Shown one piece after another: positions 11,739 to 63,550 of a stretch of DNA of 64,000 nucleotides; position 1 is the stretch's first letter; the number at the start of each line of letters is the position of its first letter. Made by a program: the position numbers and the translations under genes. Below the pieces are notes generated by a model. The model was not told the DNA's origin. It did not search any database and saw nothing but the letters and a program-made list of their open reading frames with translations. Origin of the DNA: a virus; the IMG/VR virus record IMGVR_UViG_3300009503_000030, positions 6,542 to 70,541 of that record. One strand, given 5' to 3'.

Positions 11739-13379
11739 CTATCGCATGTTCTCTGAGGATGAAAGCCCCAGCAGAAGTTCCTCCACCATGTCCTCGGCGC
11801 TTGCACCAGCGCCATCGAGCAGCCTGTCGGAGAGCTCCTGCTTCGCGATCAAGAGGCTTGCGAGACGCTGGTCAATGGTCCCGTCAATCACCAGGTGGTA
11901 GACGTTCACGGGGTCCGTCTGTCCAAGCCGGTGTATCCGGTCTTCGGCCTGCGTGATGTTTGCCGGAACCCAGTCAAGTTCCGCGAACACGGCGACTCGC
12001 GCGGCGGTCAACGTGAGCCCGACACCTGCCGCGGTAATCGAGCCGATGAAAACGCGGGTTCCGGCGGCTGTCTGAAAACGCTCAACGAGGCCGTCCCGCT
12101 CCTTCTGTGGGGTCTCCCCCGTCAAGACCACGGCCCCGTAGTCCCGTAGCCGTTCTGCCAAGATCGCAATCACGTCCTGATGATGCGCGAAGACCACGAC
12201 CTTCCGCTCGGAGTCGAGGATGTCCGCCACCCACTCCGCGACAACCGGCGCCTTCGCGAGGGCCGTGGTGTGGCGGACGCGGCTGATCTCGGTGAGCGCG
12301 ATACGACGGGCCTCCCGAAGGCGCGCGACCGCCTGGGCGTATGCGGTCGTGTCGTCAGGAGCCGCCTGGACCGCCTCCTGGGAAGGGCATCGCGACGCCT
12401 TGAAGAGCGAGACGTGCAGGGTTCGCAAGCAGAGCCCGTGCTTCTCCCAGAGCACCCGTTCGCAAGACAGGTCCACGGAGTCCGGTGGCGAGAGAATGAC
12501 GAGCGACCGGCGCTTCGGGGGGAGTTGCGACAGCACGTCCCTCTTCAGCCGGCGGATCATGATGGTCTCGCGGAGAATGGATGCGAGTTCCTCGATATTG
12601 GAGGCCCCGTCGGCCCTCCAGATCGAGCGCTGCACGCGGCCCTTCGTCCAGATGGTTTCGGTGTGCCCTGCGCAGTAGCGGACCTCGAACTGATGACGGG
12701 ACCGCCAGCGTCCTGGGTCCAGCGCTTGGAGCGTGGTGTAGAGCTCGGCTGGGCGATTGAGGACTGGGGTCCCCGTCAAGAAGATGCGCCGTGATGCGGC
12801 GTGGACGAGGCCGCGTTGTCCGGCGGACGCCGTGTACCAGCGCCCGTATGCGTTCTTGCGGTAGCGCGGCGGGACGCCGCAGATCGCGCGCGTCTGCTGG
12901 GCGTCGGGGTTCTTCAACCGGTGCGACTCGTCCACAATGAGCAGGTCCCAATGCTGCATGAGCATTGACAGTCGCATTGGATCGCGGACCTGCTCGTAGT
13001 TGGTGATGGCGAGGAGATTGCCGTCGGGCGGCACGGGGCCATCCACGATGACCACATCGAAGGGTCGCACGAGCCAACGGCGCGCCTCGTAGGCCCAGTT
13101 GGTCTTGAGCGTCGCGGGGCAGATTACGAGCACCCGTCGGATCGCGGGGTCCGCGTTGACCAGTCCAAGCGCCTGGATGGTCTTGCCCGTGCCCATCTCG
13201 TCGGCGATCAGAGCGTTTTGTCTCGCAAGACAGAAGGCGATGCCCTCCTCCTGGAAGGGGAGGTAGTGCAACCCGTCGGGAGCGGGGATTGGGGGTCGGG
13301 CGGTGGTGAACGCTGGTTGGGGGGAGAACTTGGGAGGTCCGCCCGACCCCGCGGTGGGTCCAGTGGGGTATCCCATCAT
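11739..13379 (-). CDS. SNF2-family (HARP/SMARCAL1-like) helicase
   Basis: DEMGTGKT, DESH, LTGTP, QAEDRIHRLGQ. Confidence 0.95.
   Translation of the reverse strand: MMGYPTGPTAGSGGPPKFSPQPAFTTARPPIPAPDGLHYLPFQEEGIAFCLARQNALIADEMGTGKTIQALGLVNADPAIRRVLVICPATLKTNWAYEARRWLVRPFDVVIVDGPVPPDGNLLAITNYEQVRDPMRLSMLMQHWDLLIVDESHRLKNPDAQQTRAICGVPPRYRKNAYGRWYTASAGQRGLVHAASRRIFLTGTPVLNRPAELYTTLQALDPGRWRSRHQFEVRYCAGHTETIWTKGRVQRSIWRADGASNIEELASILRETIMIRRLKRDVLSQLPPKRRSLVILSPPDSVDLSCERVLWEKHGLCLRTLHVSLFKASRCPSQEAVQAAPDDTTAYAQAVARLREARRIALTEISRVRHTTALAKAPVVAEWVADILDSERKVVVFAHHQDVIAILAERLRDYGAVVLTGETPQKERDGLVERFQTAAGTRVFIGSITAAGVGLTLTAARVAVFAELDWVPANITQAEDRIHRLGQTDPVNVYHLVIDGTIDQRLASLLIAKQELSDRLLDGAGASAEDMVEELLLGLSSSENMR
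12378..12413 (+). repeat. Solitary CRISPR repeat inside the helicase gene (antisense)
   Basis: CTGGGAAGGGCATCGCGACGCCTTGAAGAGCGAGAC. Confidence 0.8.
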
Positions 13380-13687
13380 CCTCCTTTTCGGCGCGTGATG
13401 CAAGCGCCGTCATCACGATGCGTTCCGACGAGTTCATCGAGGCACACGTCGAGGACATGCGCCAGCAGCACCATGTCGGTGGCCGATGGGACGGTGCGCT
13501 CCGTCTCCCAGTTGGCGATGGTATTGATCGAGACGCGCCGACCGGTGTATTCGGCGAAGGCCGCGGCCAGGTCCTTGCGGCGCCAAGAGCGGGCCTCGCG
13601 ATGGTGGCGGAGAAGCACGCCGCAGAAGGTCTCGACTTTGAAGGCGTCGCGATGCCCTTTCCATTTGGGCCTGTGCATCAGAGACAT
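13376..13687 (-). CDS. XRE-family HTH regulator
   Basis: LRHHREAR...DLA...TIANWE...P...LAHVLDVCLDELVG. Confidence 0.85.
   Translation of the reverse strand: MSLMHRPKWKGHRDAFKVETFCGVLLRHHREARSWRRKDLAAAFAEYTGRRVSINTIANWETERTVPSATDMVLLAHVLDVCLDELVGTHRDDGACITRRKGG
13629..13664 (-). repeat. Solitary CRISPR repeat in the 5' end of the HTH gene (sense)
   Basis: ATGGAAAGGGCATCGCGACGCCTTCAAAGTCGAGAC. Confidence 0.9.
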
Positions 13688-13923
13688 TCGTCGGCCTCCA
13701 ACAGTTCCAACGAGCGTAGCGCCGCGGCCCGTTGTGGCGCGAGTCGCGGGTCGTCCTCGTAGGGTGAGGGACGGTACGGCGGGTGTGGGACGACGGAGAG
13801 GACGGGGCGCAAGGCGTCGAGCACCCGACGCGCCGCCGCGATATCGCGGTCGGACGGTGGTCCAGACAGACGGTCGCCGTACCAGTTGAGGATCACGAGA
13901 TACTCTAGGGCGTCTTGAGTCAT
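13678..13923 (-). CDS. hypothetical protein
   Basis: Coupled to the terminase stop; GAGGTG RBS. Confidence 0.55.
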   Translation of the reverse strand: MTQDALEYLVILNWYGDRLSGPPSDRDIAAARRVLDALRPVLSVVPHPPYRPSPYEDDPRLAPQRAAALRSLELLEADECL

Positions 13924-15869
13924 CAGTACACCTCTGCGACTTCATCAAAATCGCTGAGCGCTGGCAACCCGATCTGCCGCGCCAGGTCCCAGGTGAGGCG
14001 CGTCGGGAACGGGTCTGTGGATTCATCACGAGTTTCAATGGGGCCGGCGGGGGTGAATGCCGTTCGGTTCTTCAAGAGGTTTCCCGCGAGCCAGAACAGG
14101 GACACGTAGAAGCGCGTGAGGCGGCCCTTGTTTGCGAGACGCCGTTTCCTCTGAATCCAGTCGGTGAACATCGGGTCTCGGATTCGGATGAGGTCCTGGG
14201 CGTAGGCGGTGGCTGCTTGATGGTCGGTCAGAGCGATCTCGTAGTTGTGGGTGACGAGTTTGTTGCCGTACTGCGATGGGTCTGTGATCTGCGACTCGTA
14301 GGCGACGTAAGCCTCTGGATTCGTGTGGGTCACGGGGTCGTAGAGGGTGACGTACACGATGTCGTCCCGCACGTAGACCGTGGACATGTTGGAGCGGCCC
14401 CAGATGGCGACCACGTAGGGTCCGGTGAAGGACTGCGTGTCGAGGGTGGCGGTGTCGGCCTCCAGGAGCGCTGGGCGGAGTTGGGTAGCAACGCGCCAGG
14501 CGATGAGCATGGCGCTCACGAGGTCGGGGAGGTGCTTCTCGCGGGTCGTGGCGATGAGCGCCTCGATGAGGTGGGAGAGACCGCTTGCGTCTCGCGCGAA
14601 GAAGAGCCGACCGGCGTTCATCTGGTGCGCCGCGATCTCGAGGTCCCCCCCGACGCGATACACGGAGGCGCCGGTGTGGATGGGGATCACGGCTGTACCT
14701 GGCAGGACATCGGAGAGGAAGGAGGCCACCATATCCTGGACGGCGTTGTTCTCGACGCCGATGACGAGCCTGGGGAAGCGCTCGGAGAGCGCCTTGAGGC
14801 GTCCGACGAGTCCGCCGGCGGTCCAGTGTCCGGAGGCGACGGACAGGACGAAGCAGCGGAGGTCGGAGATGCCGAGCACGCAGATCGCGGACTCGGTGGG
14901 GCCGTTGGGCGCCGCGAGGTCCACGCCGGCGATCACCATGTCCTCGCCAAGCGGGGTCCAGATGCGGGCGTTGTACGCCTGACCGCGAGACCTGGCGAGG
15001 GCGATGGACTCGTCGGTGAAGACGCGGGTATCCTCTTCTGGGGGGAGGGTCAGGAGGTACTGGCGCGCCCATTCTTGCGGCGTGGTCTTCGACTGGCGCT
15101 CGGCTACGCGCTCAGGGGTCCAGTGGGAGGGCCAGAGGGGCGTGCCGCTGTCATCCACAACAGGGAAGGTGCGGGCGACGTATCCGAGGTCGCGGACGAG
15201 GCGGTGCAGCACGTCATCCTTGTGCCACTTGACGCCGACGGCGATCACCCGCCCGACCTCGGAGAGGCGGGTGAGGTACGAGGCGTTGACGAACTCCCAG
15301 ATTTTGTCTCGCTGGTACGCGGTGGCGGTGTTCTGAGGGGACAGGATGTCGTCGAGAATGAGAAGGTCCACGCGCGCTCCAAGAATCTGGCCGTTGATGC
15401 CGATGGCCTGGTACGATGGGTCCTTTGAGACGATGGGCCGTGTAATCGTGAACACGCCGTCGGACCACGGGTGCGCGGGCCGCACGTTCGGGAAGACGCG
15501 GTGGTAGATTTTGTTCCTCTCGACGGTTTCCTTGATGAACCGCCCGAACTTGATGGCCTGGCGTTCGGTGGCCGAGACCACAACGATCCGGAGGTTCGGG
15601 TTGCGAGACAGGACCCATAGAGGGATGAGCTGGGAGCAGTGGACGCTCTTTCCATGCTCCGGTGCGGCCCAGATCACGCTGTATTTCTGCGTGGAGAGGA
15701 GGCGCAACCATTCGTATTGGAAGGGGGCCACCTCGAGCATCCGACCGCGCTCGTCGCGGAAGCAGGTGGACACCCAGATCGGGTAGGACCGGCGGGCGGC
15801 GGGCAGGATGCGCGATTCGAACACGTCTGGGGCGACGTGTGGGCGGAGTGGGGCCTTGAGGTGGTGCAT
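13923..15869 (-). CDS. terL: Terminase large subunit with C-terminal extension
   Basis: APEHGKS Walker A, GARVDLLILDD Walker B, WHKDD, AGVDLA nuclease motif, VENN. Confidence 0.92.
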   Translation of the reverse strand: MHHLKAPLRPHVAPDVFESRILPAARRSYPIWVSTCFRDERGRMLEVAPFQYEWLRLLSTQKYSVIWAAPEHGKSVHCSQLIPLWVLSRNPNLRIVVVSATERQAIKFGRFIKETVERNKIYHRVFPNVRPAHPWSDGVFTITRPIVSKDPSYQAIGINGQILGARVDLLILDDILSPQNTATAYQRDKIWEFVNASYLTRLSEVGRVIAVGVKWHKDDVLHRLVRDLGYVARTFPVVDDSGTPLWPSHWTPERVAERQSKTTPQEWARQYLLTLPPEEDTRVFTDESIALARSRGQAYNARIWTPLGEDMVIAGVDLAAPNGPTESAICVLGISDLRCFVLSVASGHWTAGGLVGRLKALSERFPRLVIGVENNAVQDMVASFLSDVLPGTAVIPIHTGASVYRVGGDLEIAAHQMNAGRLFFARDASGLSHLIEALIATTREKHLPDLVSAMLIAWRVATQLRPALLEADTATLDTQSFTGPYVVAIWGRSNMSTVYVRDDIVYVTLYDPVTHTNPEAYVAYESQITDPSQYGNKLVTHNYEIALTDHQAATAYAQDLIRIRDPMFTDWIQRKRRLANKGRLTRFYVSLFWLAGNLLKNRTAFTPAGPIETRDESTDPFPTRLTWDLARQIGLPALSDFDEVAEVY

Positions 15870-17687: not shown

Positions 17688-18149
17688 GTGTTGCAAGATT
17701 TCTTCAATGCAATAGCACCGCTGATCGCACGGATGGTGCAAGAGGCGGGGATGCTCCCACCAGCGGCGTTCTTGCTGCGCGGGGACGATGTTGCGATCCT
17801 CCCTTTCGTGCCGTTTCGTAGCGACGCTGACAAGGACACGGCGGTCGAGGCCGTCCGCACGGTGGTGCGGCTGAGTCGGGCGCGGTGTGTCCTGTTTGTC
17901 GGCGAGGCATGGGTCGTGAACGTTGCGGGCGAGGTCGAGGACATCGGGAGCATCCAGCCATCCGAGGACCCGCGCCGGCAAGAGATCGTGTTCGTGATCG
18001 GCGAGTCGCCATCGGAGCGCTGTGACTGGGCGGCCCCGATCATCCGCGATGAGCAGGGGGTCCGGCTGGGCGAGTTCGCGGCGTTCCCTGGCGGCGGAGA
18101 GGGCCGGTTTGGCGGCTTTTTCCCGCCGCGTCAAACGGACATCAACTAG
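17688..18149 (+). CDS. hypothetical protein
   Basis: GGAGG RBS; EAW...PSEDP.R.E pattern. Confidence 0.7.
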   Translation: MLQDFFNAIAPLIARMVQEAGMLPPAAFLLRGDDVAILPFVPFRSDADKDTAVEAVRTVVRLSRARCVLFVGEAWVVNVAGEVEDIGSIQPSEDPRRQEIVFVIGESPSERCDWAAPIIRDEQGVRLGEFAAFPGGGEGRFGGFFPPRQTDIN

Positions 18150-18222
18150 GTCGGGGAGGCCGGGCTCGAACCGGCGACATCCTGCTCCCAAAGCAGGCGC
18201 GCTACCACTGCGCTACTCCCCG
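18149..18222 (-). tRNA. tRNA-Pro(UGG), genomic 3' end A-CC-T
   Basis: Acceptor CGGGGAG/CTCCCCG, D-arm GCGC, anticodon arm CCTGC-TT-TGG-GA-GCAGG, T-loop TTCGAGC. Confidence 0.95.
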
Positions 18223-18283: not shown

Positions 18284-19690
18284 ATGGTGGTCGTCCGATT
18301 GGTCATCCGAGCGTCTCGCAACCTCACGAAGGCGTTCGTCCCGTCGCCCGATGTGCAGCCAGTCTGGCTCGTCCGGTCCGATGGGCGGGTCCAGCGCTAC
18401 TGGGTGAAGATGGACCGTCTTCAGGCATTGGAGCGCCACCCGATCCCAGTCGGCGTGAAGGGCTACGCGGCGCTGACGCTTCCGAAAGGCGATGCCGTGT
18501 TCGAGGGGGCGCGGAAGGTGGTGCGGACGCTCCGAGACGCCGGATACGAGTGTTGGATCACGGGCGGCGCCGTGCGCAACATGCTGATGGGCCGTCCGGT
18601 GCATGACTACGACATCGTGACCTCCGCGAGACCAGAAGAGGTGCAGAAGGTCTTTCCGAAGACCGTGCCTGTTGGTGCGAAGTTCGGGGTGATCGTTGTG
18701 CATCTACCAGGGCACGGCGACTACGAGGTGGCGACGTATCGAACGGAGTTCGGGTACGCCGATGGACGGCGGCCCGGGGAAGTGCGGTATGCGACCTCCC
18801 TGAAAGAGGACCACGACCGCCGCGACTTCACGATGAACTCGCTGGTCATGGACCCAGAGACGGGCCTCGTCCTGGATATGGCGGGGGGGCTAGAGGACAT
18901 ACGGCGCCACACGATCCGGACCATTGGGGACCCGCGACTCCGGTTCGCAGAGGACCATCTGCGTGCGATGCGCGCGATCCGGTTCGCGGCACAGTTCGGA
19001 TTCGAAATCGAGAAGAGGACGTGGGAGGCGGTGCGGGAGTACGCGCCGGCGCTGCGGCGGATATCGCGCGAGCGGATCAGAGACGAGGTGGGGAAAATCC
19101 TCGACTCGGCGCGGCCAGGACTGGGCTTGCAGTTGCTGGTGCAGTCCGGCGTTCTTGATGTCATCGCGCCGGAGGTTGCGCAGAACATCCAGGGGCGGGT
19201 CAAGGAGGTGGCGGACGCTCTGGATGCGCTGCGAGACGCGGGACCGCTTGCGCGATGGGCCGTGCTTGCATGGCACACAGCGGACCCGCGGCGGTTCATG
19301 CATGGGCTGAAACATGCGGGGGATGCTCGGGAGCGCGTTGGGGCCACGGTGGACACAGCGCACGCGATCCAACACCTGCCTGATCCGGACATGGCGGTCG
19401 AGAAGCGTGTCCTGAGGCGCGACGAGGCGCGTGATGCGCTGGCCGTGCTGCGGGCGCTCGGTCTCAGTCCGGAGGCCGTGAAACATGCAGAGGAGCGGTT
19501 GAGGCGCTGGACGCGGGAGTCCATGTTCCCGCCACGGCTGGTGACGGGGGATGATCTGATTGCCGCCGGCATGAAGCCTGGGCCGGCCATCGGCGAGGCT
19601 CTGCGGCGCGTAGAGGACGAGTGGCTGCGGGGGCACATCCGGACCCGCGCAGAGGCGATGCACATGCTTTTCGATTCGGAAGGTACTTGA
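18284..19690 (+). CDS. cca: Class II tRNA nucleotidyltransferase (CCA/A-adding) with N-terminal extension
   Basis: GGAVRN..DYD, EVATYRTE..Y.DGRRP loop, RRDFTMN, EDHLR, ISRERI.DE, TGDDL..G..PGP.IG. Confidence 0.92.
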   Translation: MVVVRLVIRASRNLTKAFVPSPDVQPVWLVRSDGRVQRYWVKMDRLQALERHPIPVGVKGYAALTLPKGDAVFEGARKVVRTLRDAGYECWITGGAVRNMLMGRPVHDYDIVTSARPEEVQKVFPKTVPVGAKFGVIVVHLPGHGDYEVATYRTEFGYADGRRPGEVRYATSLKEDHDRRDFTMNSLVMDPETGLVLDMAGGLEDIRRHTIRTIGDPRLRFAEDHLRAMRAIRFAAQFGFEIEKRTWEAVREYAPALRRISRERIRDEVGKILDSARPGLGLQLLVQSGVLDVIAPEVAQNIQGRVKEVADALDALRDAGPLARWAVLAWHTADPRRFMHGLKHAGDARERVGATVDTAHAIQHLPDPDMAVEKRVLRRDEARDALAVLRALGLSPEAVKHAEERLRRWTRESMFPPRLVTGDDLIAAGMKPGPAIGEALRRVEDEWLRGHIRTRAEAMHMLFDSEGT

Positions 19691-21001: not shown

Positions 21002-22396
21002 ATGAACATCCAAGAAGGATTCGGGTCGATCAGCCCAAGCGAACTGATCGAGTTGCGCAAGGCGCTCGCCTTCAACACGCCGACGCCGGCGACTGGGGGC
21101 GAGGGGTACGGATGGCCGCTCGTCCCACAGGACATCGAGGCGGTCCTCGCGATGGCCACGATCCGCGCGAAGCAGATTCGCTTCTACCAAGCCATCCCGA
21201 AGCCCGATGAACTGCTCGGGAGTGCGGTGTACGAGTACACCCGCCAGCAGGAGATCGGCTACGACGTGGAGCCGTTCGTGACGGAGGGGGTGCTGCCCTT
21301 CGAGCACGTCTCGCAGTACAAGCGCGAGTTCACCCGCGCGAAGTACATGGCGACGCTCCGGCGGGTGACGGACGTGATGGCCTCGGTGAACACCATCGGG
21401 GGCGCCGACGCGGTGACGAGGGAGAGCGTCAACGGGACGATTCACCTGTTGGCCCAGGTCGAGCGTGGACTGTTCCACGCCGACGAGAGCCTCAATCCCG
21501 CGGCGTTCAACGGAGTGTTCGCGACGATCCGCAACCAGTTCGCCGAGAACATCGTGGACCTGCGGGGGGCCGAGATGAGCGTGGACACCTGTCTCGAGCT
21601 CACGGCCCAACTCGTGAACCCGCCGCGCTACGCCTTCCCCCAGGCGATGTGGCTGTCGCCGTCGGCGCTGGTCTCGCTCGGGAAGGAATCCACGAGCCAG
21701 CTCCTCTACTTCGCGGACCCGACGAACCCACAGCAGTATCGTCCGGCGGTGGGCGCGCTGCCTCGGGGGTTCATGGGGGCGCATGGGGAGATGGTGGTGT
21801 ACGAGCCGGACATCTTCCTGGAGCCGGAGTTCCCGCGGTCGGAAGCCTCCGTCGGGGACGCGCCCGAGCAGACGTTCAGCGTGACGCCTGCGGTGGTGGA
21901 CCCAGGCCCTGGCGAGACGTCGCAGTTCGCGGCGGGCGATGCGGGTGACTACATCTACGGAGTGGCGGCAGTCGGCCCAGGTGGGCGGTCGGCCATCGCG
22001 AAGACCGCGGCCCAGACCGTAGCCGCTGGCAAGAAGGTCACCCTGACCATCGCGAAGACTGGTGGGTCGGTCAATGACATCACCTACTACCAGGTCTTCC
22101 GCACGCGGAAGGGCGAGACGAAACTCTGGCTGATCGGGGGTATCGCGTACAACGGGGGCGTCGCGTCCGTCACCTTCAGTGATCTCAACGACGAGATTGC
22201 GGGGACGAGCAAGGCGCTGATCTTGGAGTACGACCCGACGGTCATCCAGTTCAAGCGCCTCCTGCCCCTGATCCGCATCCCGTTCGCGAAGATCGACCTG
22301 TCGGTGCGCTTCGCGGTGGCCCTGTTCGGGATGCCGGTCATCGAAACGCCGACGAAGATTCTCTGCATCAAGAACATCGCCTCGACGCAGAAGTGA
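21002..22396 (+). CDS. Major capsid protein (Twort/SPO1-like)
   Basis: Follows the protease; LRKAL, LVPQDIE, E..LF.AD, FNG, IVDLRG, Ig-like insertion. Confidence 0.88.
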   Translation: MNIQEGFGSISPSELIELRKALAFNTPTPATGGEGYGWPLVPQDIEAVLAMATIRAKQIRFYQAIPKPDELLGSAVYEYTRQQEIGYDVEPFVTEGVLPFEHVSQYKREFTRAKYMATLRRVTDVMASVNTIGGADAVTRESVNGTIHLLAQVERGLFHADESLNPAAFNGVFATIRNQFAENIVDLRGAEMSVDTCLELTAQLVNPPRYAFPQAMWLSPSALVSLGKESTSQLLYFADPTNPQQYRPAVGALPRGFMGAHGEMVVYEPDIFLEPEFPRSEASVGDAPEQTFSVTPAVVDPGPGETSQFAAGDAGDYIYGVAAVGPGGRSAIAKTAAQTVAAGKKVTLTIAKTGGSVNDITYYQVFRTRKGETKLWLIGGIAYNGGVASVTFSDLNDEIAGTSKALILEYDPTVIQFKRLLPLIRIPFAKIDLSVRFAVALFGMPVIETPTKILCIKNIASTQK

Positions 22397-22576: not shown

Positions 22577-22614
22577 GCCGCGAGACACGGAGCCGACCCC
22601 GTTAGCCTGTCTCA

Positions 22615-39425: not shown

Positions 39426-39428
39426 CTC

Positions 39429-42529: not shown

Positions 42530-42530
42530 G

Positions 42531-44387: not shown

Positions 44388-45028
44388 CCGGCCCTCCCGT
44401 ATCGCGCCTTTCAAGGTGTCGCGATACCCTTTCCACCAGACCATACCTTTCGCGGAACTCCCGCTCAAGTCGGGCGATCTCGGGGTCCGTGATCGCCTCC
44501 AACGGGGGCACGATCTCCTCCGCCGGCGGAGGCTCCGATGCGTATCGTTCCGCGAGCCTGTAGAGCATCAGGAGGCCGATGGGGACCCGTGGCGCCTGGT
44601 CAACGGGGATTCTGCACGGGCTGAACCACCACGATCTGGCGACTCTCTTCGCCGCCTTGTCTATACCGGCGAAAAAAGTCGGCTTCGAACCGCGCCACCT
44701 CCTCCGATACCGCGACGAAGATTTCGGGTCCGAGCTGGTCAAGCGGACGCTTGAACCAGTCTGGCGACTCCTCCACGAGCACTGCGCATCGGGCCATCGC
44801 CAGGAGCAGCGTCTGGATGTCTGCGGGCAACGATTGCCACGCGGCCCCCCGCGCCAGTCCAGAGAGGGCCACCGCCAGTTGCCGCACGTCTTCTGCTGTC
44901 GGTAGCCGCGCGACGAACGTCCCTTCGAGGTCCTCTCCCTTCGGAGACCGGTAGCGGACGGCGAACCGATGCTTTCCATCTGGGATGGCCTCCGCGGTCT
45001 CGCGAACGATGTCCTGGATGGAGGGCAT
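44377..45028 (-). CDS. Tail assembly chaperone (44600-45028) with probable frameshifted extension to 44377
   Basis: Lies between tube and tape measure; slippery TTTTTTC at 44677-44671 with an overlapping +1 ORF. Confidence 0.65.
44401..44436 (-). repeat. Solitary CRISPR repeat 13 nt before the tape-measure start
   Basis: GTGGAAAGGGTATCGCGACACCTTGAAAGGCGCGAT; compensatory GTATCGCG/CGCGATAC stem. Confidence 0.88.
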
Positions 45029-45036
45029 TGGTCACC

Positions 45037-45468
45037 TCACTGTTCCCACCGATGCCGGATGCGGGTGGCCTGGATCGCGACGTTCTGCATGACGAAGGAC
45101 CGCGCCTGCACCTGCATCGTGTAGTTGACAAGCACCGCGTCCTCGATCACAAAGATCGGTTTGTCATCGTGCGGATTCGCCGCATAGACCGCGATCTGGA
45201 ACGGAGGGAAGTTCACGAACTCCGCTGGATGTTCCCCGTCCATCGGGGGGAGAATCTCCTTGAGATCGTCCTCCAGGAGGCGGACGAAGCCGACGCGGCC
45301 ATCAATGATATAGCCCACCTTCAGCAAGGCGGCAGGCTCAGGCCGCCCGATCACCTCGACAGGCAGCACGCGAGACTGGATGGTGCCTTGAAAGTCGGTC
45401 CCCCAACCGACCTTCTTGCCAGCCACGTGAATCTCCACGCGCGCACCATGCAGGACTGTCTCTGGCAT
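45037..45468 (-). CDS. Tail tube protein
   Basis: 143 aa directly after the sheath; HGA.V.I...G..VG, V..IG. Confidence 0.78.
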   Translation of the reverse strand: MPETVLHGARVEIHVAGKKVGWGTDFQGTIQSRVLPVEVIGRPEPAALLKVGYIIDGRVGFVRLLEDDLKEILPPMDGEHPAEFVNFPPFQIAVYAANPHDDKPIFVIEDAVLVNYTMQVQARSFVMQNVAIQATRIRHRWEQ

Positions 45469-45479
45469 GGTTCACCTCC

Positions 45480-47843
45480 TCACGCAGCCATGCGTACGAC
45501 GTGCAGGGTTGTCGTGATCCAGTAGAGGGTTTCCAAGACGGCCACCTTGTACCCGACGTTCATCGCGTTTCCCAGGTCCTCGACCTCGATGGACCTTGGG
45601 TCGAACGCCTTGATCTCGTTGTCCCGCACCTGGCGGGCGAGCTCTTCGCGGACCCGCAGCCGGACCTGCGACGGCAGGATACCCGTCACCTGCTTCCCGA
45701 TGAATGCCTCAAGCGCGCGGCGCATGGACTCGTTCGACCGGTTCACCGACTCGTTCGCGGTGACCGATGAGAACACGGGGTTGTTGTCCACGGCATACGT
45801 GGTCACATCGCGAGACCACCGGAAGCCCGTCGGGCGCTTCTCGATCACGAAGATGCCGGTGGCGATCAGGTCTTCGAGATCGTCCACAACCGCCCACCTG
45901 TCGGCCCCTGAGAGGCTGGCACCGTCCCGCGCATCCACGATGGACACGTAGCGCCAGGTGACACCCTCCCCAGGCGCGCGCCCCGCATCGCACGCCGCCG
46001 CCAGGAGCGCCGTGTAATAGGGGGGCAGTTCCAAGACCTCCCCGTTCTCGTCGAACACGCTGATCGCCTGAGCGAGGAGCGCCACGTTCCGCGAGTTGAG
46101 GAGGGCGCGGCGCTCGGCCAGTTCCCCCCGCGTCGGGACCGACCCGAAACCGAGGTAGGCGTTGCGCGCCACGCCGCCATAGGCCCCGCTCATATAGTCC
46201 ACGTGATCGCGAGTCGCCGCGTGGACTGCCGCCGACCCAGTCAGAGGAACCACGTGCTGAATCTCGAGGTCTGGTGCTTTCAGCAAGTCGAGTGCCGCCG
46301 TCCAGTCGGAGGCCGCCGCAGGGATATTGTCGCTGCCCCCCAGCAGGTACTGGGCCACGGCCATCGGCGCGGGCAGGTCCTTCGCTCCATCCGCGCGCGT
46401 CGCCGTGATATACGTGGAAAGGGCGTTGTTCACGCCGTCCACGAGCGCCTTCAGATTGGCGGTCAGCCCGATCCCATCCGACGAAATCTGCACGGTCTCG
46501 GTCCCCAGGCTTCCGGTCTTGACGATGCTCGTGACCGAGGCCCACGCGATGCTCCCTGCCCCATAGAGCGAGCCTGCCTTGATCGTCACGGTCTCGCTGG
46601 CGGCCTCGTTCGTATCGCGGGCCGTCCCGCTGATCGCGAACGATACGTCGTTCCCAAGAGCCCCAGAAAGCAGGAACGCAAGGCGTCCGGCCCACGCGAA
46701 GGGTGCGGCAACCGGCCCATTGGCCCCCCAGCCCGCCTCGCCCACCGACATCCGCGTGCGGAGCTCCCGTCCAGACACGTGCGGCCAGCTGTCCGGATCG
46801 TAGACCCCCTCCTGGTCCAGGTCGGATACCGGCGCCGTCGAGGTTCCAAGGAGAAGGGCATGATACGAGTCGCCCGCCCCTGTGTAGCGCCCGACGAGGT
46901 GTTGCAGTTCGCTCGTCGTCGTATCCGCCAGGTGCGAGAGGGCCGAAATCCGCAGTTGGGTCGCCGTGGCCCCGAAGTTCCCACTGATCGTGATCGCATC
47001 CACATGTGACCACTGCTTTGTCGTGACCCCGCGCGTGCTGGCACCAGAGATCGTGACGGTCTCCGTATCGGCCTTGCCCGTCTCGCGGTTGACCCCCTGG
47101 ACCTGGATGGACACGGTGTTCCCAGCCCCAGGTGGAGCCAGCGTCCCTGCGTTGTCCGTCGTCTCGAAGACGATGGCCGAGGTGAAGGCTACGCCCGATG
47201 GGAGCCACGCCTTCGACGGCCCTGTGGGTTTGGGGGTGCGTAGCCGCCACTCGATGGCGAACATCGCGCCGTCCAGCGCCACCTGGCAAGACTCGTACAC
47301 GTCATCCTCAGGGATGTCTCCGTCGTATCCAAGACGGACCTTCTGCTGGTTGTACCCAAGGTTGTCCACGGCGGCGCTTTCCGACCGGTAGGCGACGGTG
47401 ACCTTCCGGCCCGCGCCGGCATACCGCGAGGATGCGAGCACCTGGACCTTGATCTCGTTCCCGAAGGCGCCGGCGTCCGCCGCCTTCAGGATGATGCTGT
47501 CCTGATCGCCATCATCCTGCACGGTGAGCGCGGCGTAATCGGCCTTGTTGACACGGACCAGGATCAGGCGGTTGGCACCATTCGGTATCCGTGGGTCCGA
47601 GGACGGGCGAAAGGCCAGTTGACCGATGATCGCCGCGTCCCGCGCCGTGAGAAGACGCCGCAGCGCAGATGCAGAGCGCACGATGATCGGGGTCTGTGGC
47701 GGCCCGCCCCGCACGAACTCCCCAAGCACCGCAATCGTCCCTGTGATGGCCGGACCGAGCCCCGCAAGCGCCTCGGCATCCACCAATGGGAAGACGCCTG
47801 GGCGGAACGTTGTCTGTCCTTGCACGCGAATGGAATCAGGCAT
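45480..47843 (-). CDS. Contractile tail sheath protein
   Basis: RPGV, G....GG.P, GA.GN.I.V, L.GG.D, W..AL..L, VTTY, FIG. Confidence 0.9.
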   Translation of the reverse strand: MPDSIRVQGQTTFRPGVFPLVDAEALAGLGPAITGTIAVLGEFVRGGPPQTPIIVRSASALRRLLTARDAAIIGQLAFRPSSDPRIPNGANRLILVRVNKADYAALTVQDDGDQDSIILKAADAGAFGNEIKVQVLASSRYAGAGRKVTVAYRSESAAVDNLGYNQQKVRLGYDGDIPEDDVYESCQVALDGAMFAIEWRLRTPKPTGPSKAWLPSGVAFTSAIVFETTDNAGTLAPPGAGNTVSIQVQGVNRETGKADTETVTISGASTRGVTTKQWSHVDAITISGNFGATATQLRISALSHLADTTTSELQHLVGRYTGAGDSYHALLLGTSTAPVSDLDQEGVYDPDSWPHVSGRELRTRMSVGEAGWGANGPVAAPFAWAGRLAFLLSGALGNDVSFAISGTARDTNEAASETVTIKAGSLYGAGSIAWASVTSIVKTGSLGTETVQISSDGIGLTANLKALVDGVNNALSTYITATRADGAKDLPAPMAVAQYLLGGSDNIPAAASDWTAALDLLKAPDLEIQHVVPLTGSAAVHAATRDHVDYMSGAYGGVARNAYLGFGSVPTRGELAERRALLNSRNVALLAQAISVFDENGEVLELPPYYTALLAAACDAGRAPGEGVTWRYVSIVDARDGASLSGADRWAVVDDLEDLIATGIFVIEKRPTGFRWSRDVTTYAVDNNPVFSSVTANESVNRSNESMRRALEAFIGKQVTGILPSQVRLRVREELARQVRDNEIKAFDPRSIEVEDLGNAMNVGYKVAVLETLYWITTTLHVVRMAA

Positions 47844-49347
47844 GTCCACCCTCCTCCGCTTCTTCGGTTATCCTACCTGGACCGGCGGCAGTGCGCAATG
47901 GGGCACCAGCGCCGTGTTCCAGACCACCAGCGAGACCACCCAGACCACCCAGACCACCGAGGCCCTGTGGTTGCCCGCCACCAAACAGGCTCGCCGCGTC
48001 AATGAACCCCATTCCAACGCCCAGCTGGATGATCTGGAGCAGGGATGGGTTGGCCGGCAGTTTCCCAAGCCCGCTTGGCAATGGCTGCAACCCGTGCTCC
48101 GCGCGTATCTCGTCCACCGTCATGTAGGCTCGGACCCGCTTGTCGTCAAAATCAGCGCGGTCCCGCTCCGCGAAATCCGCAAGCCCCTGAAACCGAATCA
48201 CGAAGTCAGGATTCAACTGGTTGACGATGTAATGGTTGAGCCACGATTCAAGGTCTCGCAGCAGTGGCCGCAGGCCCTTGTCCCGCCCGATCTGCACCCG
48301 CGTCTCAGGGCTCGATTGAAACACAGCACCCCGCTGGCCCTCCGCCCCAAACTGAAACCCGATCTCCGCAGGATCAATCAGATAGATGCCGCACAAAACC
48401 TTCATCAACCAGTTCATCCACTCGCGGTACTCCATGTCGGAGTTGGCGCGCCCGAGGGAGAGCCACTGGATGTTCGACTTCTCGGTCTTCGGATTCAGAA
48501 TCGGGATACGATGGGCGCTCCCAACGCCCGTGGCGACCGCCTGGAGTTCGCGGCGGAACGCCTGTAGTTGCTCCGGCAGCATCCCGCCTGGCACCACGAG
48601 GATACCCTTCGTGTTCATGCCCTGCCGGAAGTAGTTGGCGTTGTACTGGTAGCCCCAGAGGAACGCCGTCAAGATGTCCACGACCTCGATCAGCTCAGGG
48701 TAGCCGTATCCCATAGACTGGAGGTCGGTACGAGGACGCCGGATTCCGAAGAGCATCTCCTCCGGCGCGAACTCCGCAACGATCTCGTACTCCTCAAGCA
48801 CCTGCACGTAGCCGGATGCATCCTCGTTGATTCGGATGGTTGCCGCATCCACAGGAAGGACACACAACGGTTTGCCGAGTCTGGTGTGGACAATCTGCGC
48901 GCACGCCTGATCGTAGCGCAGAGAGTCTCGCATGAGCGCCCGACAGAGGTACTCGAACGACAGCCTCTGTCGGTAGACGCGGTGCTCCTTGTGCTTGTCG
49001 GCCCATGACCATTCGCCACAGGTCAGCAGCCACCCCTGAATCCGCTCCGCCTCCTTCTCGTCTGCGCGTGTTGGGGACTTCCCATCGCGCCGCACGACCT
49101 TGAAGCCGGTTTCGCGGGGATCGCGGGGTATCCGCGCGAACTCCGCGATCTGGGCGATCCGCGTTTGCAAGATGACGGCGATGATGTGCTTGCGGGACAG
49201 GTCGCGCAACAACGAGTACGAGACGAGGTTCGCGAAGTGCGGGGGCTCGCGCCACTGGGACGCCTGATACCGCGCGTACCACGGATCGTCGAGTGCAGCG
49301 AGTATCACCTCACCAGGGTCGAACGTCTCGCGGTCGCGGGAGGCCAC
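47836..49347 (-). CDS. Portal protein
   Basis: RDSL.YDQ, PVDAATIR, YGYPE, YF.QG...KGIL, DME..., IDP.EIG, TVDE.R. Confidence 0.92.
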   Translation of the reverse strand: MASRDRETFDPGEVILAALDDPWYARYQASQWREPPHFANLVSYSLLRDLSRKHIIAVILQTRIAQIAEFARIPRDPRETGFKVVRRDGKSPTRADEKEAERIQGWLLTCGEWSWADKHKEHRVYRQRLSFEYLCRALMRDSLRYDQACAQIVHTRLGKPLCVLPVDAATIRINEDASGYVQVLEEYEIVAEFAPEEMLFGIRRPRTDLQSMGYGYPELIEVVDILTAFLWGYQYNANYFRQGMNTKGILVVPGGMLPEQLQAFRRELQAVATGVGSAHRIPILNPKTEKSNIQWLSLGRANSDMEYREWMNWLMKVLCGIYLIDPAEIGFQFGAEGQRGAVFQSSPETRVQIGRDKGLRPLLRDLESWLNHYIVNQLNPDFVIRFQGLADFAERDRADFDDKRVRAYMTVDEIRAEHGLQPLPSGLGKLPANPSLLQIIQLGVGMGFIDAASLFGGGQPQGLGGLGGLGGLAGGLEHGAGAPLRTAAGPGRITEEAEEGGHA

Positions 49348-51603: not shown

Positions 51604-52428
51604 TCACCTCCACCAGACGGTGATCGTCAGAAACAGTCGGCCAATCACGGTCCCAGGGTCACCCGACGCCTTCGCGTAGACCTGCGATCCGCCGAGTCCC
51701 TCCTCAGCAGGGAACGGCGTCTTGACGAATGCGTGGTCCGACGCGACGAGGATCGCGATCTCGGAGCCCATGTTCCCCAGCGTCAGGACGCTGTTCACGG
51801 CATCCCAGCCGGGCGCCAGTTCGACCGGCCCCTGAGCGGAGGCATCCGCCGCAGAGAAGATTTCGTCTGCGTTCGTGCCGCCCCCGATACTGATCGTGGA
51901 GCCCGCCGGTCCTGGGGTCTCGATTGCGAGGAGCGCATCATGGATGATGGCGCCTGATGGCAGCACCCCGATCTGCACCGGCGTCGTGGGCACCGTGACC
52001 GTGAAAGCGATGTTGTAGAGTTGGAGTCTCGCGTTCAGTGCGGTGTCAAGATAGGCCTTGCCGTAGTACGCATCGTCGTGATTGTGGAGGGGCTTCGCCG
52101 CCAGCCGGATGAAGCGCCCCGTCTCTGGCGCCGAGTTGTGGGCGACGATGTAATCCTCGTCGGCCACCGCCGTGGAGTCGGCATCCCAGACATACACACG
52201 CGGGGCTTCCCCGGCGCTGCCCGCGACGACATACACCTGCTCGTCCGCCAGTTTGGAGAAGGTCAGGGACTTCAAGGCAGACAGGCTGTTGACCTTCGCT
52301 CCGATCCGTGTGGCGATCTCGGTGATGCTCGTACCCTCAGAGGCGAGGGCAGATTCAAGTGCCTGCAACTTGTCGAGGAGGCCCGCCCGAATCAATCGGA
52401 ACGGGTTGCGGGTCTTGTACAGGTCCAT
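51604..52428 (-). CDS. putative virion structural protein
   Basis: AAGGAGGT RBS; H.HD..YY; beta-rich C-terminus. Confidence 0.6.
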   Translation of the reverse strand: MDLYKTRNPFRLIRAGLLDKLQALESALASEGTSITEIATRIGAKVNSLSALKSLTFSKLADEQVYVVAGSAGEAPRVYVWDADSTAVADEDYIVAHNSAPETGRFIRLAAKPLHNHDDAYYGKAYLDTALNARLQLYNIAFTVTVPTTPVQIGVLPSGAIIHDALLAIETPGPAGSTISIGGGTNADEIFSAADASAQGPVELAPGWDAVNSVLTLGNMGSEIAILVASDHAFVKTPFPAEEGLGGSQVYAKASGDPGTVIGRLFLTITVWWR

Positions 52429-54779: not shown

Positions 54780-54780
54780 A

Positions 54781-55062
54781 ATGGCCGCCCGCACGAAGAC
54801 CGTCGCCTTCGTTCTTGACACGCAAATCCGCGCGCTTTCCAAACTGCGCGACATGGTGCTCGCGGCTGGGGAGGTGGACCCTGAGACCGCGAAGACCATC
54901 GCCGCGTTGTCTCGCGGCATCCTTGTCGCCGTAGAGACCCAGATGGAGGTCGAGCGGTTCGATGGTGTCGAGCACGCGGATGTCGAGTTCTCCCAAGATG
55001 AACTGGGGCGGCTACTGGCGCTTGTCGGGGAGCAGGAGAGCGCGGAGGAACCGGTCGCATGA
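54781..55062 (+). CDS. hypothetical protein (possible small terminase)
   Basis: Helical 93-aa ORF with RBS; function is a guess. Confidence 0.5.
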   Translation: MAARTKTVAFVLDTQIRALSKLRDMVLAAGEVDPETAKTIAALSRGILVAVETQMEVERFDGVEHADVEFSQDELGRLLALVGEQESAEEPVA

Positions 55063-55469
55063 GCAGTGGAACGCTGACCCAGCATTTCGCGATCCACGAG
55101 TTTCAGTGCGCCCACGGGCTCATTGGGAATATCGAGGCGGCGCGCGTCGTCTGCGCGCAGTTGGAAGCCCTCCGCGCGGAGGTGGGGAAACCCATCGTTA
55201 TCATCTCCGGATACCGGTGCCCTGAGTGCAACAGGGCGGCCCAGGGGGCCACGCACTCCCAGCATCTCTTGTCTCGCGCCGCGGACATCGTGATCGAGGG
55301 ACTGGCGCCTGATGCGGTGGCCGCGATCATCGCCAAGTTGATCAACGATGGCCGGATGCAACAGGGTGGGATCGGCATCTACTACGCGGAGCGCGGCACC
55401 CGTCGGCGCCCGTTTACCCATTACGATATTCGTGGGTATCCGGCTCGTTGGAGCGTACCACGGAGGTGA
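55059..55469 (+). CDS. Peptidase M15A endolysin
   Basis: HF...EF.C, SGYRC...N, SQH...AADI, GIGIY, H.DIRG...RW. Confidence 0.9.
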   Translation: MSSGTLTQHFAIHEFQCAHGLIGNIEAARVVCAQLEALRAEVGKPIVIISGYRCPECNRAAQGATHSQHLLSRAADIVIEGLAPDAVAAIIAKLINDGRMQQGGIGIYYAERGTRRRPFTHYDIRGYPARWSVPRR

Positions 55470-56134: not shown

Positions 56135-56591
56135 ACGGGCGGGTGCGTGGAACACGGTGCGCGGCCTCGAGTGGGCGGCGCTCGTCGTGGCGGCGCTGCT
56201 CGGGGTCGGAGAGGCGATCCTGGGACACGGGGCCGGACTCGTTCCTCCGGCGGTGATCGCGGCAGTAGCCGTCGCGGTCAAGGCGCTGCGCGCGGTGCTC
56301 GCGGTGACCGCCGACGTGCGGTCCTCGACGGTGTCCCCGGCGTCCTGGGCTGTCGCCGTGGTCCTCGCGCTCGTCGGGAGTCTCGCGGGCGAGGTGGCTG
56401 GACAGAAGCAGGAGGTGGTCCATGAAATCACCGTCATCGTGGGTCCGGATGTTGCTGGCGGTGCCGTTCGTGATGCTCTTGACGCCGCTGGTGATCCTGG
56501 TCCAGTGGATCATCTGGGCGGCGGGGACCCTGTAGAAAGATATCTCGACACCTTGGAAGGCGAGACATGCTCCGGCGGGTCCGGAGATTGA
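56118..56591 (+). CDS. Membrane protein (about 3 TM, holin candidate)
   Basis: Three hydrophobic segments; GGAGGT RBS. Confidence 0.6.
   Translation: MGRTFERAGAWNTVRGLEWAALVVAALLGVGEAILGHGAGLVPPAVIAAVAVAVKALRAVLAVTADVRSSTVSPASWAVAVVLALVGSLAGEVAGQKQEVVHEITVIVGPDVAGGAVRDALDAAGDPGPVDHLGGGDPVERYLDTLEGETCSGGSGD
56531..56566 (+). repeat. Solitary CRISPR repeat (variant type)
   Basis: TGTAGAAAGATATCTCGACACCTTGGAAGGCGAGAC. Confidence 0.8.
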
Positions 56592-56639
56592 CATTGGCGG
56601 GGGCCAATGGCGCGAGACACGGGGTGGCAACCGTGACCG

Positions 56640-56675
56640 CGCATGAGGGTATCTCTGGACCTTCAGACCAGAGAC
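56640..56675 (+). repeat. Solitary CRISPR repeat (major type) 23 nt before the lipoprotein start
   Basis: CGCATGAGGGTATCTCTGGACCTTCAGACCAGAGAC; TCTCTGG/CCAGAGA stem. Confidence 0.87.
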
Positions 56676-56698
56676 GATGCCGCCAGAGGAGGTACCAG

Positions 56699-56923
56699 AT
56701 GAGGCTGTTGATCGTGCTCGTGCTTTCGTGCGTCTTCTTGGCGTGCGGCACCATCACGCCGGCGATCAAGGAGGCCACGGACGTGATAGCCTGCCGGTAC
56801 GCGGCCTACGTCTCGCGAGACGAGGCGCTCAAGCCGGACGAGCAGGCGCTGCGGCGGGAAATGGCCGAGAACCTGCGGCATCAGGTCGGGCTGACCGGCG
56901 CCTGTCCCGACTACGGGAGGTGA
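56699..56923 (+). CDS. Small lipoprotein (spanin-like candidate)
   Basis: MRLLIVLVLSCVFLAC lipobox. Confidence 0.7.
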   Translation: MRLLIVLVLSCVFLACGTITPAIKEATDVIACRYAAYVSRDEALKPDEQALRREMAENLRHQVGLTGACPDYGR

Positions 56924-59605: not shown

Positions 59606-60277
59606 CTACGACGGGCTCTCCCCCCTGAGACCCCGTGGATTCCGCCGTGCCGCCTCCGCGGCGGCCCTCTGCACCACCTCCGGCTTTGGATACGGCAGCG
59701 TGACAAGCGTCCTGTCGGGCAGCGCCACATCCAGCCCATCCCCAGGGTCCGCAAAATCCACCCCCACGACCCGCGCCATCCCGCCAGCGTCTCGCGGTGG
59801 AACCATCATCTGGACCTTCTTCACCTTCCCATCAGACCCAAGGTCCGCGATCAACGTGCCTGGCGGCAACGCCGTCAGCGTGCCGTGATACCCCCTCCCA
59901 GCCAGCCTCTGCGGCTCCCGCCAGTTCAACCGCCCAGGGTAGAACACGACCCGCAGCGACCCGTCCTCTGCCTCCGCATGGACCGTGTAGGTGTCCCCGT
60001 CTAACGGCAGCCGCTTCCTACCCGTGAAGTAGTCACACGCCGCCCGCTCCTCCCGCGTCAACCGTGGTATCTCCGCGCGACTCGCGTACCCGACACCAGG
60101 CGCCCCAGCACGCACCCACACCCGCTTCTGGTACGGCGCCCCACGCGACGGATGCACCGTCTGAATCACTGGCACCAACCCAGGACGCCCAGCAATCACG
60201 CCACTGTCTCGACTTTCAAGGCGCCGAGATGTCCCTTTCATCCGGAGCGCGGACACGAAGTACAATGGCCTGCTCAT
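59606..60277 (-). CDS. hypothetical protein with GLVPV..WV motif, paralogue of 11064-11678
   Basis: GGAGGTG RBS; LPPGTL, LPD.T. Confidence 0.65.
   Translation of the reverse strand: MSRPLYFVSALRMKGTSRRLESRDSGVIAGRPGLVPVIQTVHPSRGAPYQKRVWVRAGAPGVGYASRAEIPRLTREERAACDYFTGRKRLPLDGDTYTVHAEAEDGSLRVVFYPGRLNWREPQRLAGRGYHGTLTALPPGTLIADLGSDGKVKKVQMMVPPRDAGGMARVVGVDFADPGDGLDVALPDRTLVTLPYPKPEVVQRAAAEAARRNPRGLRGESPS
60206..60241 (-). repeat. Solitary CRISPR repeat as codons 13-24 of the gene (sense)
   Basis: ATGAAAGGGACATCTCGGCGCCTTGAAAGTCGAGAC. Confidence 0.87.
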
Positions 60278-60292
60278 CAGCAGCACCTCCAC

Positions 60293-60321: not shown

Positions 60322-60348
60322 CGTCAACGGACTCGGTGGGAGACCCCC

Positions 60349-62569: not shown

Positions 62570-62629
62570 TCTGTCATGGAACCACACCGTCAAACGTATC
62601 TGTTGATGGAAGGTTGAAAAGGAGCCCGT

Positions 62630-63286: not shown

Positions 63287-63306
63287 CCCTCCATCGAACA
63301 TCCCCC

Positions 63307-63335
63307 TTGACTCGCCCCCATACCCTCGCTATCGT
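63307..63335 (+). promoter_or_regulatory. sigma70-type promoter
   Basis: TTGACT-17-TATCGT. Confidence 0.6.
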
Positions 63336-63516
63336 CTCCACAACGGGTCGGGTGCCGGCTTGGCCAGCCGCCAACCTGATCCAGGGAGCAGAGGCTCCCT
63401 CGTGGCAGGTAGGCCCCCCACCGAGGCGCAAGCCTCGACCCCCACAGCCTGCCACCTGGGCGCCAAAGGCCCGGCCCGCCACTCTCATGTGGGGGTCTGC
63501 GGCCATGCCGCGCCTC

Positions 63517-63550
63517 GTGGAAAGGGCATCTCGACCTTCGCGGTCGAGAC
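63517..63550 (+). repeat. Solitary CRISPR repeat (34 bp) directly before the RBS of the replication gene
   Basis: GTGGAAAGGGCATCTCGACCTTCGCGGTCGAGAC then GAAGAAAGGAGAAAGCC-ATG. Confidence 0.9.

Follow-up and report, generated by a model that had tools for sequence, protein, structure and literature searches.

This study concerns solitary copies of a CRISPR repeat that lie scattered over a phage genome, together with the cas12m gene and the CRISPR array carried by the same genome. The DNA analyzed, referred to as the window, is the whole stretch of 64,000 nucleotides (nt) corresponding to bases 6542-70541 of the 70,541-bp IMG/VR virus record IMGVR_UViG_3300009503_000030. Positions are window positions unless marked as genome positions. 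Nine solitary copies lie in the window and a tenth in the remaining 6.5 kb of the record. The repeats were assigned to two types, both present in the array, and were scored with the covariance model R1 and, where stated, with nhmmer. The features are as follows.

8377..10233, plus strand: cas12m, 618 amino acids (aa) from the given start (598 aa in the public protein cluster)
10290..11027, plus strand: CRISPR array, six identical 36-nt type-1 repeats followed by five divergent type-2 repeats
12378..12413, plus strand: solitary repeat, degenerate, antisense in the SNF2 helicase gene (11739-13376, minus strand); R1 15 bits, nhmmer 11.0 bits
13629..13664, minus strand: solitary repeat, sense, starting 13 nt past the stop codon of an 81-aa gene; R1 38.3 bits
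22541..22576, plus strand: solitary repeat, type 1-like, sense, in a convergent intergenic region; R1 31 bits
44401..44436, minus strand: solitary repeat, sense, with a compensatory change in the pseudoknot helix; R1 35.2 bits
52434..52469, minus strand: solitary repeat, half-degenerate, sense, overlapping the stop codon of a DNA methyltransferase gene; R1 13.5 bits, nhmmer 9.8 bits
56531..56566, plus strand: solitary repeat, sense, in the lysis cassette, overlapping the stop codon of a 37-aa membrane-like open reading frame (ORF); R1 34 bits
56640..56675, plus strand: solitary repeat, type 1-like, sense, in the lysis cassette; R1 30 bits
60206..60242, minus strand: solitary repeat, sense, 50 nt past the first ATG of ORF 59606-60292; R1 34.1 bits
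63517..63550, plus strand: solitary repeat, sense, in the 5' leader of a 620-aa replication-initiator-like gene; R1 37.8 bits
Genome 4907-4941, plus strand: solitary repeat, 16 nt before the start codon of a 252-aa replication-module gene

The cas12m product matched the Cas12m structure 23vw_A of the PDB over residues 7-583 (E 1.8e-56) as well as Cas12m2 (8hio, E 2e-20), and Pfam placed a Cas12f1-like TNB domain in it (PF07282, E 5.7e-13). The D, E and D columns are kept in homologue alignments. On these matches the effector is a Cas12m homologue with a predicted RuvC/TNB core. The array begins 56 nt past the cas12m stop codon; its repeats are 36 nt long with a stem, a pseudoknot and an AC end, as in the CRISPR RNA (crRNA) of Cas12m, its spacers are irregular (24-38 nt) and its tail is degenerate. 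Members of the cas1, cas2 and cas4 families were not found among 81 ORFs compared with PHROGs or 12 ORFs compared with Pfam, a search confined to these libraries and an ORF subset. According to the consulted parts of two published studies, Cas12m orthologues, those with D-E-D residues included, bind DNA without cutting it, and cut precursor crRNA within or just upstream of the repeat scaffold with no need of a trans-activating crRNA (PMC11013384, PMC10442227). Of Cas12m2 it is described there that the crRNA scaffold combines a stem and a pseudoknot, that A(-2) and C(-1) are contacted in a base-specific manner, and that DNA binding requires just a repeat and a 17-nt match (PMC10442227).

Counting mismatches against the array consensus recovered two of the ten known copies, and a home-made pair-aware score likewise recovered just two. 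The score was dropped, and mismatch counting was replaced by a covariance model and nhmmer. To keep the solitary sites from influencing it, the covariance model R1 was trained on nothing but the 11 repeats of the array; it was run over the window with filters off, and the whole genome was also searched. A sequence-only reading of the window had listed nine solitary repeats, with both array types represented among them. All nine were recovered by R1. Seven sites scored 30-38 bits with E values of 1e-10 to 7e-8 (13629-, 63517+, 44401-, 60206-, 56532+, 22543+ and 56646+), and two were weak (12378+, 15 bits, E 0.005; 52427-52469-, 13.5 bits, E 0.015). The tenth copy, at genome 4907-4941+, scored 22.4 bits (E 2e-6). 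A hidden Markov model (HMM) of the array repeats alone, used in nhmmer, recovered ten of ten copies, seven at 21-26 bits and three at 9.8-11 bits. The best nhmmer match in 50 dinucleotide shuffles of the 70.5-kb genome had 9.0 bits, and none of the shuffled genomes reached the 9.8 bits of the weakest real copy. Solitary copies of the repeat exist in this genome and exceed chance. Copies 22541 and 56640 are type 1-like and the others type 2-like, in agreement with the sequence-only reading. Apart from the pair 56531/56640, the starts of which are 109 nt from each other, no copy has another R1 match less than 100 nt away. Degenerate or imperfect copies number three of the ten (52434-, 12378+ and genome 4907+). 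An extra R1 match at 25414+ (12.4 bits, E 0.03), which nhmmer did not find, was left out of the count. In a search of Rfam no family was found for the repeats, and only a tRNA was returned.

Conservation of the RNA fold was measured by a pair count in an alignment of 25 array and solitary sequences (19 distinct rows) from the phage and its relative G001, which is described below. Within the stem and pseudoknot 94.4% of the cells were paired, compared to 85.5 ± 1.2% in shuffles, none of which (0 of 500) reached the observed value; slid-partner controls gave 27-50%. Changes on both sides of a pair were present at 6 of the 12 stem and pseudoknot pairs. The stem changed from U-A to C-G in five rows, and this covariation is independent of the alignment method because the stem was not part of the model. 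Much of the covariation divides the two repeat types, both of which are also present in the array, and single solitary copies contribute compensated changes of their own, for example 44401. Across 39 Cas12m repeat types the pseudoknot helix was 98.5% paired, with compensatory changes at five of five pairs. Kept in the copies are the stem with its purine-rich 5' strand, the partner in the pseudoknot and the GAC at the end. Solitary copies retain the paired scaffold structure of Cas12m crRNA; the earlier observation that most copies keep the stem and the 3' end of the repeat was borne out, with stem, pseudoknot and terminal AC retained.

The copies are placed non-randomly with respect to genes. 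Nine of ten are sense to the local genes (binomial test, two-sided p = 0.021). For the window this means eight of nine, the number given by the sequence-only reading, and reading of the frames confirmed that only 12378+ is antisense. Eight of the ten lie at most 75 nt from a called gene boundary, compared to 21% of random positions (p = 1.3e-4). At five copies (genome 4907, 44401, 52434, 56640 and 63517) a start codon with a Shine-Dalgarno sequence follows 5-23 nt past the repeat, and at these five the ribosome-binding site (RBS) occupies the position that a crRNA guide would take. Under an objective rule (start codon plus Shine-Dalgarno sequence, ORF of at least 60 codons, 3-30 nt after the repeat) four of ten copies were followed by such a site, compared to 6.7% at random (p = 0.003). 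Copy 63517 was missed by this rule because its ORF runs over the record ends. The distance between the copies and cas12m ranges from 2 to 53 kb.

Among the copies at an RBS, 44401 is followed 13 nt downstream by an ATG with GGGAGGG that opens a 637-aa ORF, which by its position may be the tape measure protein. The ATG of the replication-initiator-like gene lies 17 nt downstream of copy 63517, and GGAGG and the ATG of a 74-aa lipoprotein-like gene are found 23 nt downstream of copy 56640. Copy 52434 has lost its 3' pseudoknot strand to the Shine-Dalgarno sequence of the next gene, the ATG of which is 5 nt downstream; this gene (51604-52428) encodes 274 aa, to which no function was assigned. Copy 13629 begins 23 nt past the first ATG (with GGAGG) of ORF 13376-13687, a helix-turn-helix (HTH) regulator matching a PHROG transcriptional regulator (E 5.5e-5). 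Copy 22541 is located 145 nt behind the stop codon of the major head protein gene, and copy 12378 sits in the linker between two Pfam domains of the SNF2 helicase. Promoters and terminators were scanned in 12 kb containing five of the copies. Promoter-like sites were present upstream of two of these, 60206 and 63517, at 60327-60298 and 63307-63335 with the same -10 hexamer. At the copies of this region no terminator was listed. A further ORF (44380-45028, minus strand), which is in a different frame and starts from within or after a 142-aa gene, was observed to run through copy 44401 and to end eight codons past it, just before the large tail gene. Judged by position, this ORF could be the frameshift extension of a tail assembly chaperone, and repeat 44401 could be translated there.

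Cas12m homologues were searched in IMG/VR with a profile from a 7-sequence alignment and were found on 28 contigs (L203-L229 among them), including a ~36-kb record present in five samples, as well as records that bear terminal repeats. Carriage of Cas12m by a virus is thus not unique to one phage. In the collections searched the lineage is rare, and the only close relative via Cas12m was G001 (92% identity), a 41.8-kb fragment estimated as 59% complete. It is mosaic: apart from the Cas12m locus and the lysis cassette, it has only a few genes in common with the studied phage. Two further short contigs were reached via the head protein (54% identity) and contained no repeat match. When positions 14000-14330 of G001 (L015) were compared with 56400-56760 of the window, a repeat was seen to replace the hydrophobic middle of the membrane-like ORF, in frame and over 12 codons; in the studied phage this ORF is intact. 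G001 also keeps a remnant of a type-1 repeat end where the studied phage has the second copy of the lysis cassette (56640).

An unrelated 40.2-kb phage fragment with 40% G+C, G002, was found by a pattern scan and encodes a Cas12m homologue (E 6.8e-61) with an array. It has solitary copies at four places and a weak fifth, all sense to the cas12m operon: one is located 28 nt upstream of the cas12m ATG, another has a compensated helix and falls within the cas12m ORF, and the leader of the operon contains two more. Other Cas12m loci were searched with R2, a model of 39 Cas12m repeat types that detects only five of the ten copies in the studied phage and so is less sensitive than R1; seven apparent duplicate viral loci were left out. 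With R2, 25 of 30 long metagenome loci were scanned, and solitary matches were present in five (L047, L052, L070, L084 and L103). The copy in L070 lies 112 nt upstream of cas12m. The copy in L103 (36 bits) is flanked by two genes on the same strand and followed ~22 nt downstream by GGAG and an ATG. R2 matches in five whole Cas12m-bearing viral records were confined to arrays, apart from one weak solitary candidate, and at 15 further viral loci (±10 kb) 61 of 61 matches were in arrays. HMMs made from the array of each locus were run with nhmmer on 44 metagenome loci and G002 and gave solitary matches in six loci, with E below 1e-4 only in L091 and L092; the negatives of this search are weak because the same method found one of the five G002 copies. 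Long degenerate, irregularly spaced array tails were commonly observed in metagenomic Cas12m loci (L036, L037, L040, L075, L103 and L211), for example 54 repeat matches over 3.4 kb in L040. In some Cas12m loci there is also a small second array, placed either upstream of cas12m or on the opposite strand.

Conserved scaffold, sense bias and gene-start bias together point to selection at the RNA level and argue against neutral scars. We tentatively read the ten elements as cis-acting Cas12m-binding sites on phage messenger RNAs (mRNAs), serving as operators, processing sites or both, and regard this as only just short of an even chance. That the phage has turned a class 2 CRISPR effector to the control of its own genes, as a regulator that binds RNA sequence-specifically, with the array retained for DNA targets, is a possibility that we hold with somewhat more doubt. 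The sequence-only reading had also cast Cas12m as the controller of a phage regulon. Effector homology, the kept scaffold and the biases in orientation and gene-start placement favour that proposal, and its variant in which guides are made from mRNA found no target in the genome beyond chance.

The following course of events would fit the scaffold and its placement. The ten repeats would be transcribed as parts of phage mRNAs, and Cas12m would bind the repeat fold on the mRNA, that is the short stem, the pseudoknot helix and the terminal AC. It might cut just upstream of the scaffold, as in precursor crRNA, and remain bound, holding the following ~17-20 nt like a guide. At the five RBS sites the held stretch would be the Shine-Dalgarno sequence and the start codon, so translation would be blocked or tuned, and the downstream cistron could be uncoupled from the upstream message. 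Behind the head protein gene and the small lysis ORF, binding may define or protect an RNA end. A single Cas12m would in this manner set the translation of replication, tail, lysis and regulator genes, or cut their messages, and in G002 those of cas12m itself. Binding, cleavage and the effect on translation are predictions from the kept scaffold and its placement.

Several observations weigh against Cas12m-binding sites on mRNAs. Half of the copies lie away from ribosome-binding sites (two in 5' coding sequence, two behind genes, one antisense), and the downstream genes (replication initiator, HTH regulator, large tail gene, lipoprotein, unknowns) have no evident common function or timing. Minimum-free-energy folds of four sites were no stabler than those of shuffled sequences (z -0.61 to +0.62). 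Given the three degenerate copies, some of the ten may be dead. In G001 the single solitary copy is the orthologue of 56531, and the counterpart of the 63517 site contains no copy; solitary copies were also few around the 25 metagenome loci searched with R2. Carried over to other genomes, the proposal of a repeat network held in part: solitary copies occur in G001 (one) and in G002, and the 20 other Cas12m viral contigs scanned with R2 had essentially none, one weak candidate aside. The dense network is a trait of the studied phage and partly of G002, and is not general to Cas12m elements.

The copies might instead act as guide factories, from which a repeat with ~20 nt is released as a crRNA-like RNA that sends Cas12m to DNA of the host, of rival phages or of the phage itself. 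The modest requirement for DNA binding stated above, a repeat and a 17-nt match (PMC10442227), would suit such guides, crRNA-like regulators and standalone repeats upstream of cas12a are documented, and copies lie just upstream of cas12m in G002 and L070. A 5'-anchored seed-match scan, which covered eight of the ten sites, yielded a 14-nt match of the 20-mer after 13629- within the cas12m ORF (9767-9780, minus strand); a seed match of this length has a chance of 0.008 per guide, or ~8% for ten. It is complementary to the mRNA, its flank on the side of the protospacer-adjacent motif (PAM) is CGCTC, and its place is suggestive. In contrast, none of the ten downstream 20-mers matched elsewhere in the own genome or in G001 with fewer than 3 mismatches in 17, so that guides from mRNA found no match in the genome beyond chance, and the five guides of G002 had no match longer than 9 nt, the chance level. 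Moreover, the 'guide' at five sites is a generic Shine-Dalgarno and start region, and the copies are not followed by a second degenerate repeat. We consider guide production possible but unlikely.

Alternatively, the copies could be scars of array decay or joints of repeat-mediated exchange between phages with Cas12m, which intergenic positions would tolerate and which would be at most 36-bp homology patches for module shuffling. Turnover of copies is real, as indicated by a mosaic joint at 63517 and by degenerate copies: nucleotide homology between the phage and G001 stops 3 nt before the 63517 repeat, and beyond this point G001 lacks the repeat and continues with another gene. The copy orthologous to 56531 is in frame inside the small ORF in G001 and just past the ORF in the studied phage. 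From these differences at the lysis cassette and at 63517, copies have been gained, lost or moved on a short time scale. The three degenerate copies, the degenerate array tail and the long degenerate tails of many metagenomic Cas12m arrays would also agree with scars. However, neutral remnants are not expected to lie nine of ten in sense to transcription, to keep both helices via compensatory changes or to end 5-23 nt before start codons at five copies. Recombination would need a common orientation along the genome and not one that follows each gene. Randomly placed neutral scars, which would have overturned the sequence-only reading, are at odds with these data, and we judge scars or joints to be distinctly unlikely as an account of the set.

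Decoys represent a further explanation: RNA anti-CRISPRs (Racr), or a buffer, that soak up the Cas12m of the host or of the phage itself. Solitary phage repeat units act so for several CRISPR types in the described cases, where the units are unaccompanied by cas genes and are made as small RNAs from a promoter of their own (PMC10651486). Ten transcribed copies would amount to a high decoy dose. Against this, decoys would also disable the cognate effector and array on the same phage, and they do not require placement next to an RBS. When one genome of each of 185,579 prokaryote species was scanned for the exact repeat pattern, 87 matches came up, all of them single, and no array. This number is consistent with a rough chance estimate for which no control was run, and repeats that have diverged would be missed by such a pattern. 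Of the two best of the 87 matches, one reads as ordinary coding sequence (L126) and the other is a lone candidate copy of 33.7 bits (L149). A decoy function appears very unlikely. No more credible is recognition by something else, with hairpins serving a host RNase or another phage protein and repeat likeness reflecting common descent only: intergenic hairpin processing sites are common in phages, but Cas12m-specific positions are kept here (pseudoknot partner, 5' purine-rich stem strand and terminal GAC) and the solitary copies reflect both repeat types of the array.

The spacers of the array were compared with 50,697 phage records without a match. In the own genome nothing was found beyond a partial match of spacer 2 (10400-10437) at genome 83-109 (L007), which comprises 20 nt with one mismatch and is limited to the PAM-distal part. 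The genome there consists of consecutive CCCGNN hexamers, which code for a Pro-X linker of the replication-initiator-like protein. The CCCGNN rhythm is common to spacers 2, 3, 4 and 7, and spacers 3 and 7 are 79% alike; this shared rhythm suggests that the array may target such Pro-X linkers in related phages. At several repeats the last 5-8 nt (3' pseudoknot strand plus AC) reappear a few to ~20 nt downstream. This was seen after the last array repeat (11020-11041), after copy 22541 (22577-22586) and in loci L052, L047 and L103, and could reflect slippage or provide an alternative pairing partner.

The record has 39-bp terminal repeats, a completeness estimate of 100% and a G+C content of ~65%, and is ~91% coding by our gene calls, which combined a codon-bias script, PHROG and Pfam matches and frame-by-frame reading. 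The main structural, lysis and replication genes are listed here.

13923-15869, minus strand: large terminase (PHROG match)
21002-22396, plus strand: major head protein (PHROG match)
37612-49347, minus strand: portal, tail sheath and baseplate proteins (PHROG match)
55059-55469, plus strand: endolysin (PHROG match)
63568-64000 of the window and on to genome 40-1469: 620-aa replication-initiator-like ORF, crossing the record ends (PHROG replication initiation protein at the N-terminus)

Matches to PHROGs also included a DnaB-like helicase, the SNF2 helicase and three DNA methyltransferases. The genome is that of a complete myovirus-like phage. The 620-aa ORF unites what seemed two genes, and as it spans the record ends, the genome is in effect circular or permuted; the 39-bp 'terminal repeat' probably arose as an overlap in its assembly. 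A search of sequencing runs listed three DNA runs that contain the stretch and no RNA run. The two best of these DNA runs are labelled hot springs metagenome, which may be the source of the DNA. A tRNA-Pro gene (TGG, 18149-18222, minus strand) adjoins a gene for a CCA-adding tRNA nucleotidyltransferase (18287-19690, plus strand).

Among described systems, Racr units resemble the solitary copies in that single repeats lie on a viral genome outside arrays, keep the fold and are presumably Cas-bound (PMC10651486). As in Racr, the single repeats do not adjoin other repeats, with the exception of the 109-nt pair 56531/56640. In the consulted text Racr units are found on elements without cas genes, directly after their own promoter, as small non-coding RNAs matched to the CRISPR type of the host (PMC10651486). 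Here, by contrast, cas12m and its array are on the same genome, the ten copies lie in predicted mRNAs with half of them at ribosome-binding sites, and no host array of the repeat type was found in the exact-pattern scan.

The crRNA-like regulators, namely CreR/CreA, crlRNA mini-arrays and standalone repeats (bioRxiv 10.1101/2023.03.03.530964, 10.1101/2023.03.10.532045, 10.1101/2024.12.27.630466 and 10.1101/2024.10.29.618823), share repeat-like elements outside an array and a regulatory role, here a proposed one, and in G002 the copy that precedes the cas12m ATG by 28 nt resembles the standalone repeats next to cas12a. As far as described in the consulted parts, these regulators have a pseudo-spacer that partly matches a promoter and lie in or beside the cas locus. 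No such promoter match was found in the own genome, G001 or G002, and the copies lie 2-53 kb from cas12m, with one G002 copy being beside it. Unlike the pseudo-spacer, the sequence after the repeat here is the ribosome-binding site of the cistron itself. The sequence-only reading had claimed that no system of this kind was described. This has to be narrowed, since solitary phage repeats (Racr) and standalone repeats near cas12a are known, while many copies at ribosome-binding sites with a cognate effector were not found in the literature searched. The system departs from the defining features of both Racr units and crRNA-like regulators: it is cas-linked, its copies lie in predicted mRNAs and no promoter target was found.

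With type V-M (PMC10442227, PMC11013384) the locus shares effector homology, 36-nt AC-ending stem and pseudoknot repeats and an array right after the gene. Published Cas12m is an array-crRNA-guided DNA-binding silencer, and solitary repeats or an action on mRNA are not mentioned in the consulted parts of these papers. A preprint of September 2026 (10.64898/2026.09.14.751636) reports Cas12m with an array in a myxophage, terms it the first in phage and is, in the part consulted, silent on solitary repeats. The myxophage may be this same genome or another, and the 28 IMG/VR contigs contrast with the wording 'first in phage'.

A parallel in mechanism is offered by the translational operators and processing sites of phages, such as the MS2 coat protein hairpin, the sites of T4 RegA and the intergenic RNase III sites of T7. 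They are small structured RNAs at or before an RBS or between cistrons, and through them one protein sets several genes. Five copies likewise are structured elements at or just 5' of an RBS, and nine of ten copies are sense. The likeness would be an analogy of mechanism only, with no relation of sequence or protein, as a CRISPR effector and a CRISPR repeat would take these roles here. A literature search returned no paper on many mRNA repeat copies at ribosome-binding sites in a phage with a cognate effector. CRISPR repeats outside arrays are so far known as anti-immunity decoys or promoter-silencing guides. If the copies are cis-acting operators for the Cas12m of the phage itself, they would represent a natural Cas12 acting on messenger RNA through the repeat handle alone. 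This would add a new layer of phage gene control and offer a ready design for small orthogonal translational switches made of a 36-nt tag and a ~600-aa protein. There is a substantial chance that many mRNA-embedded repeats at ribosome-binding sites, in a phage with its own effector, are more novel than the known kinds.

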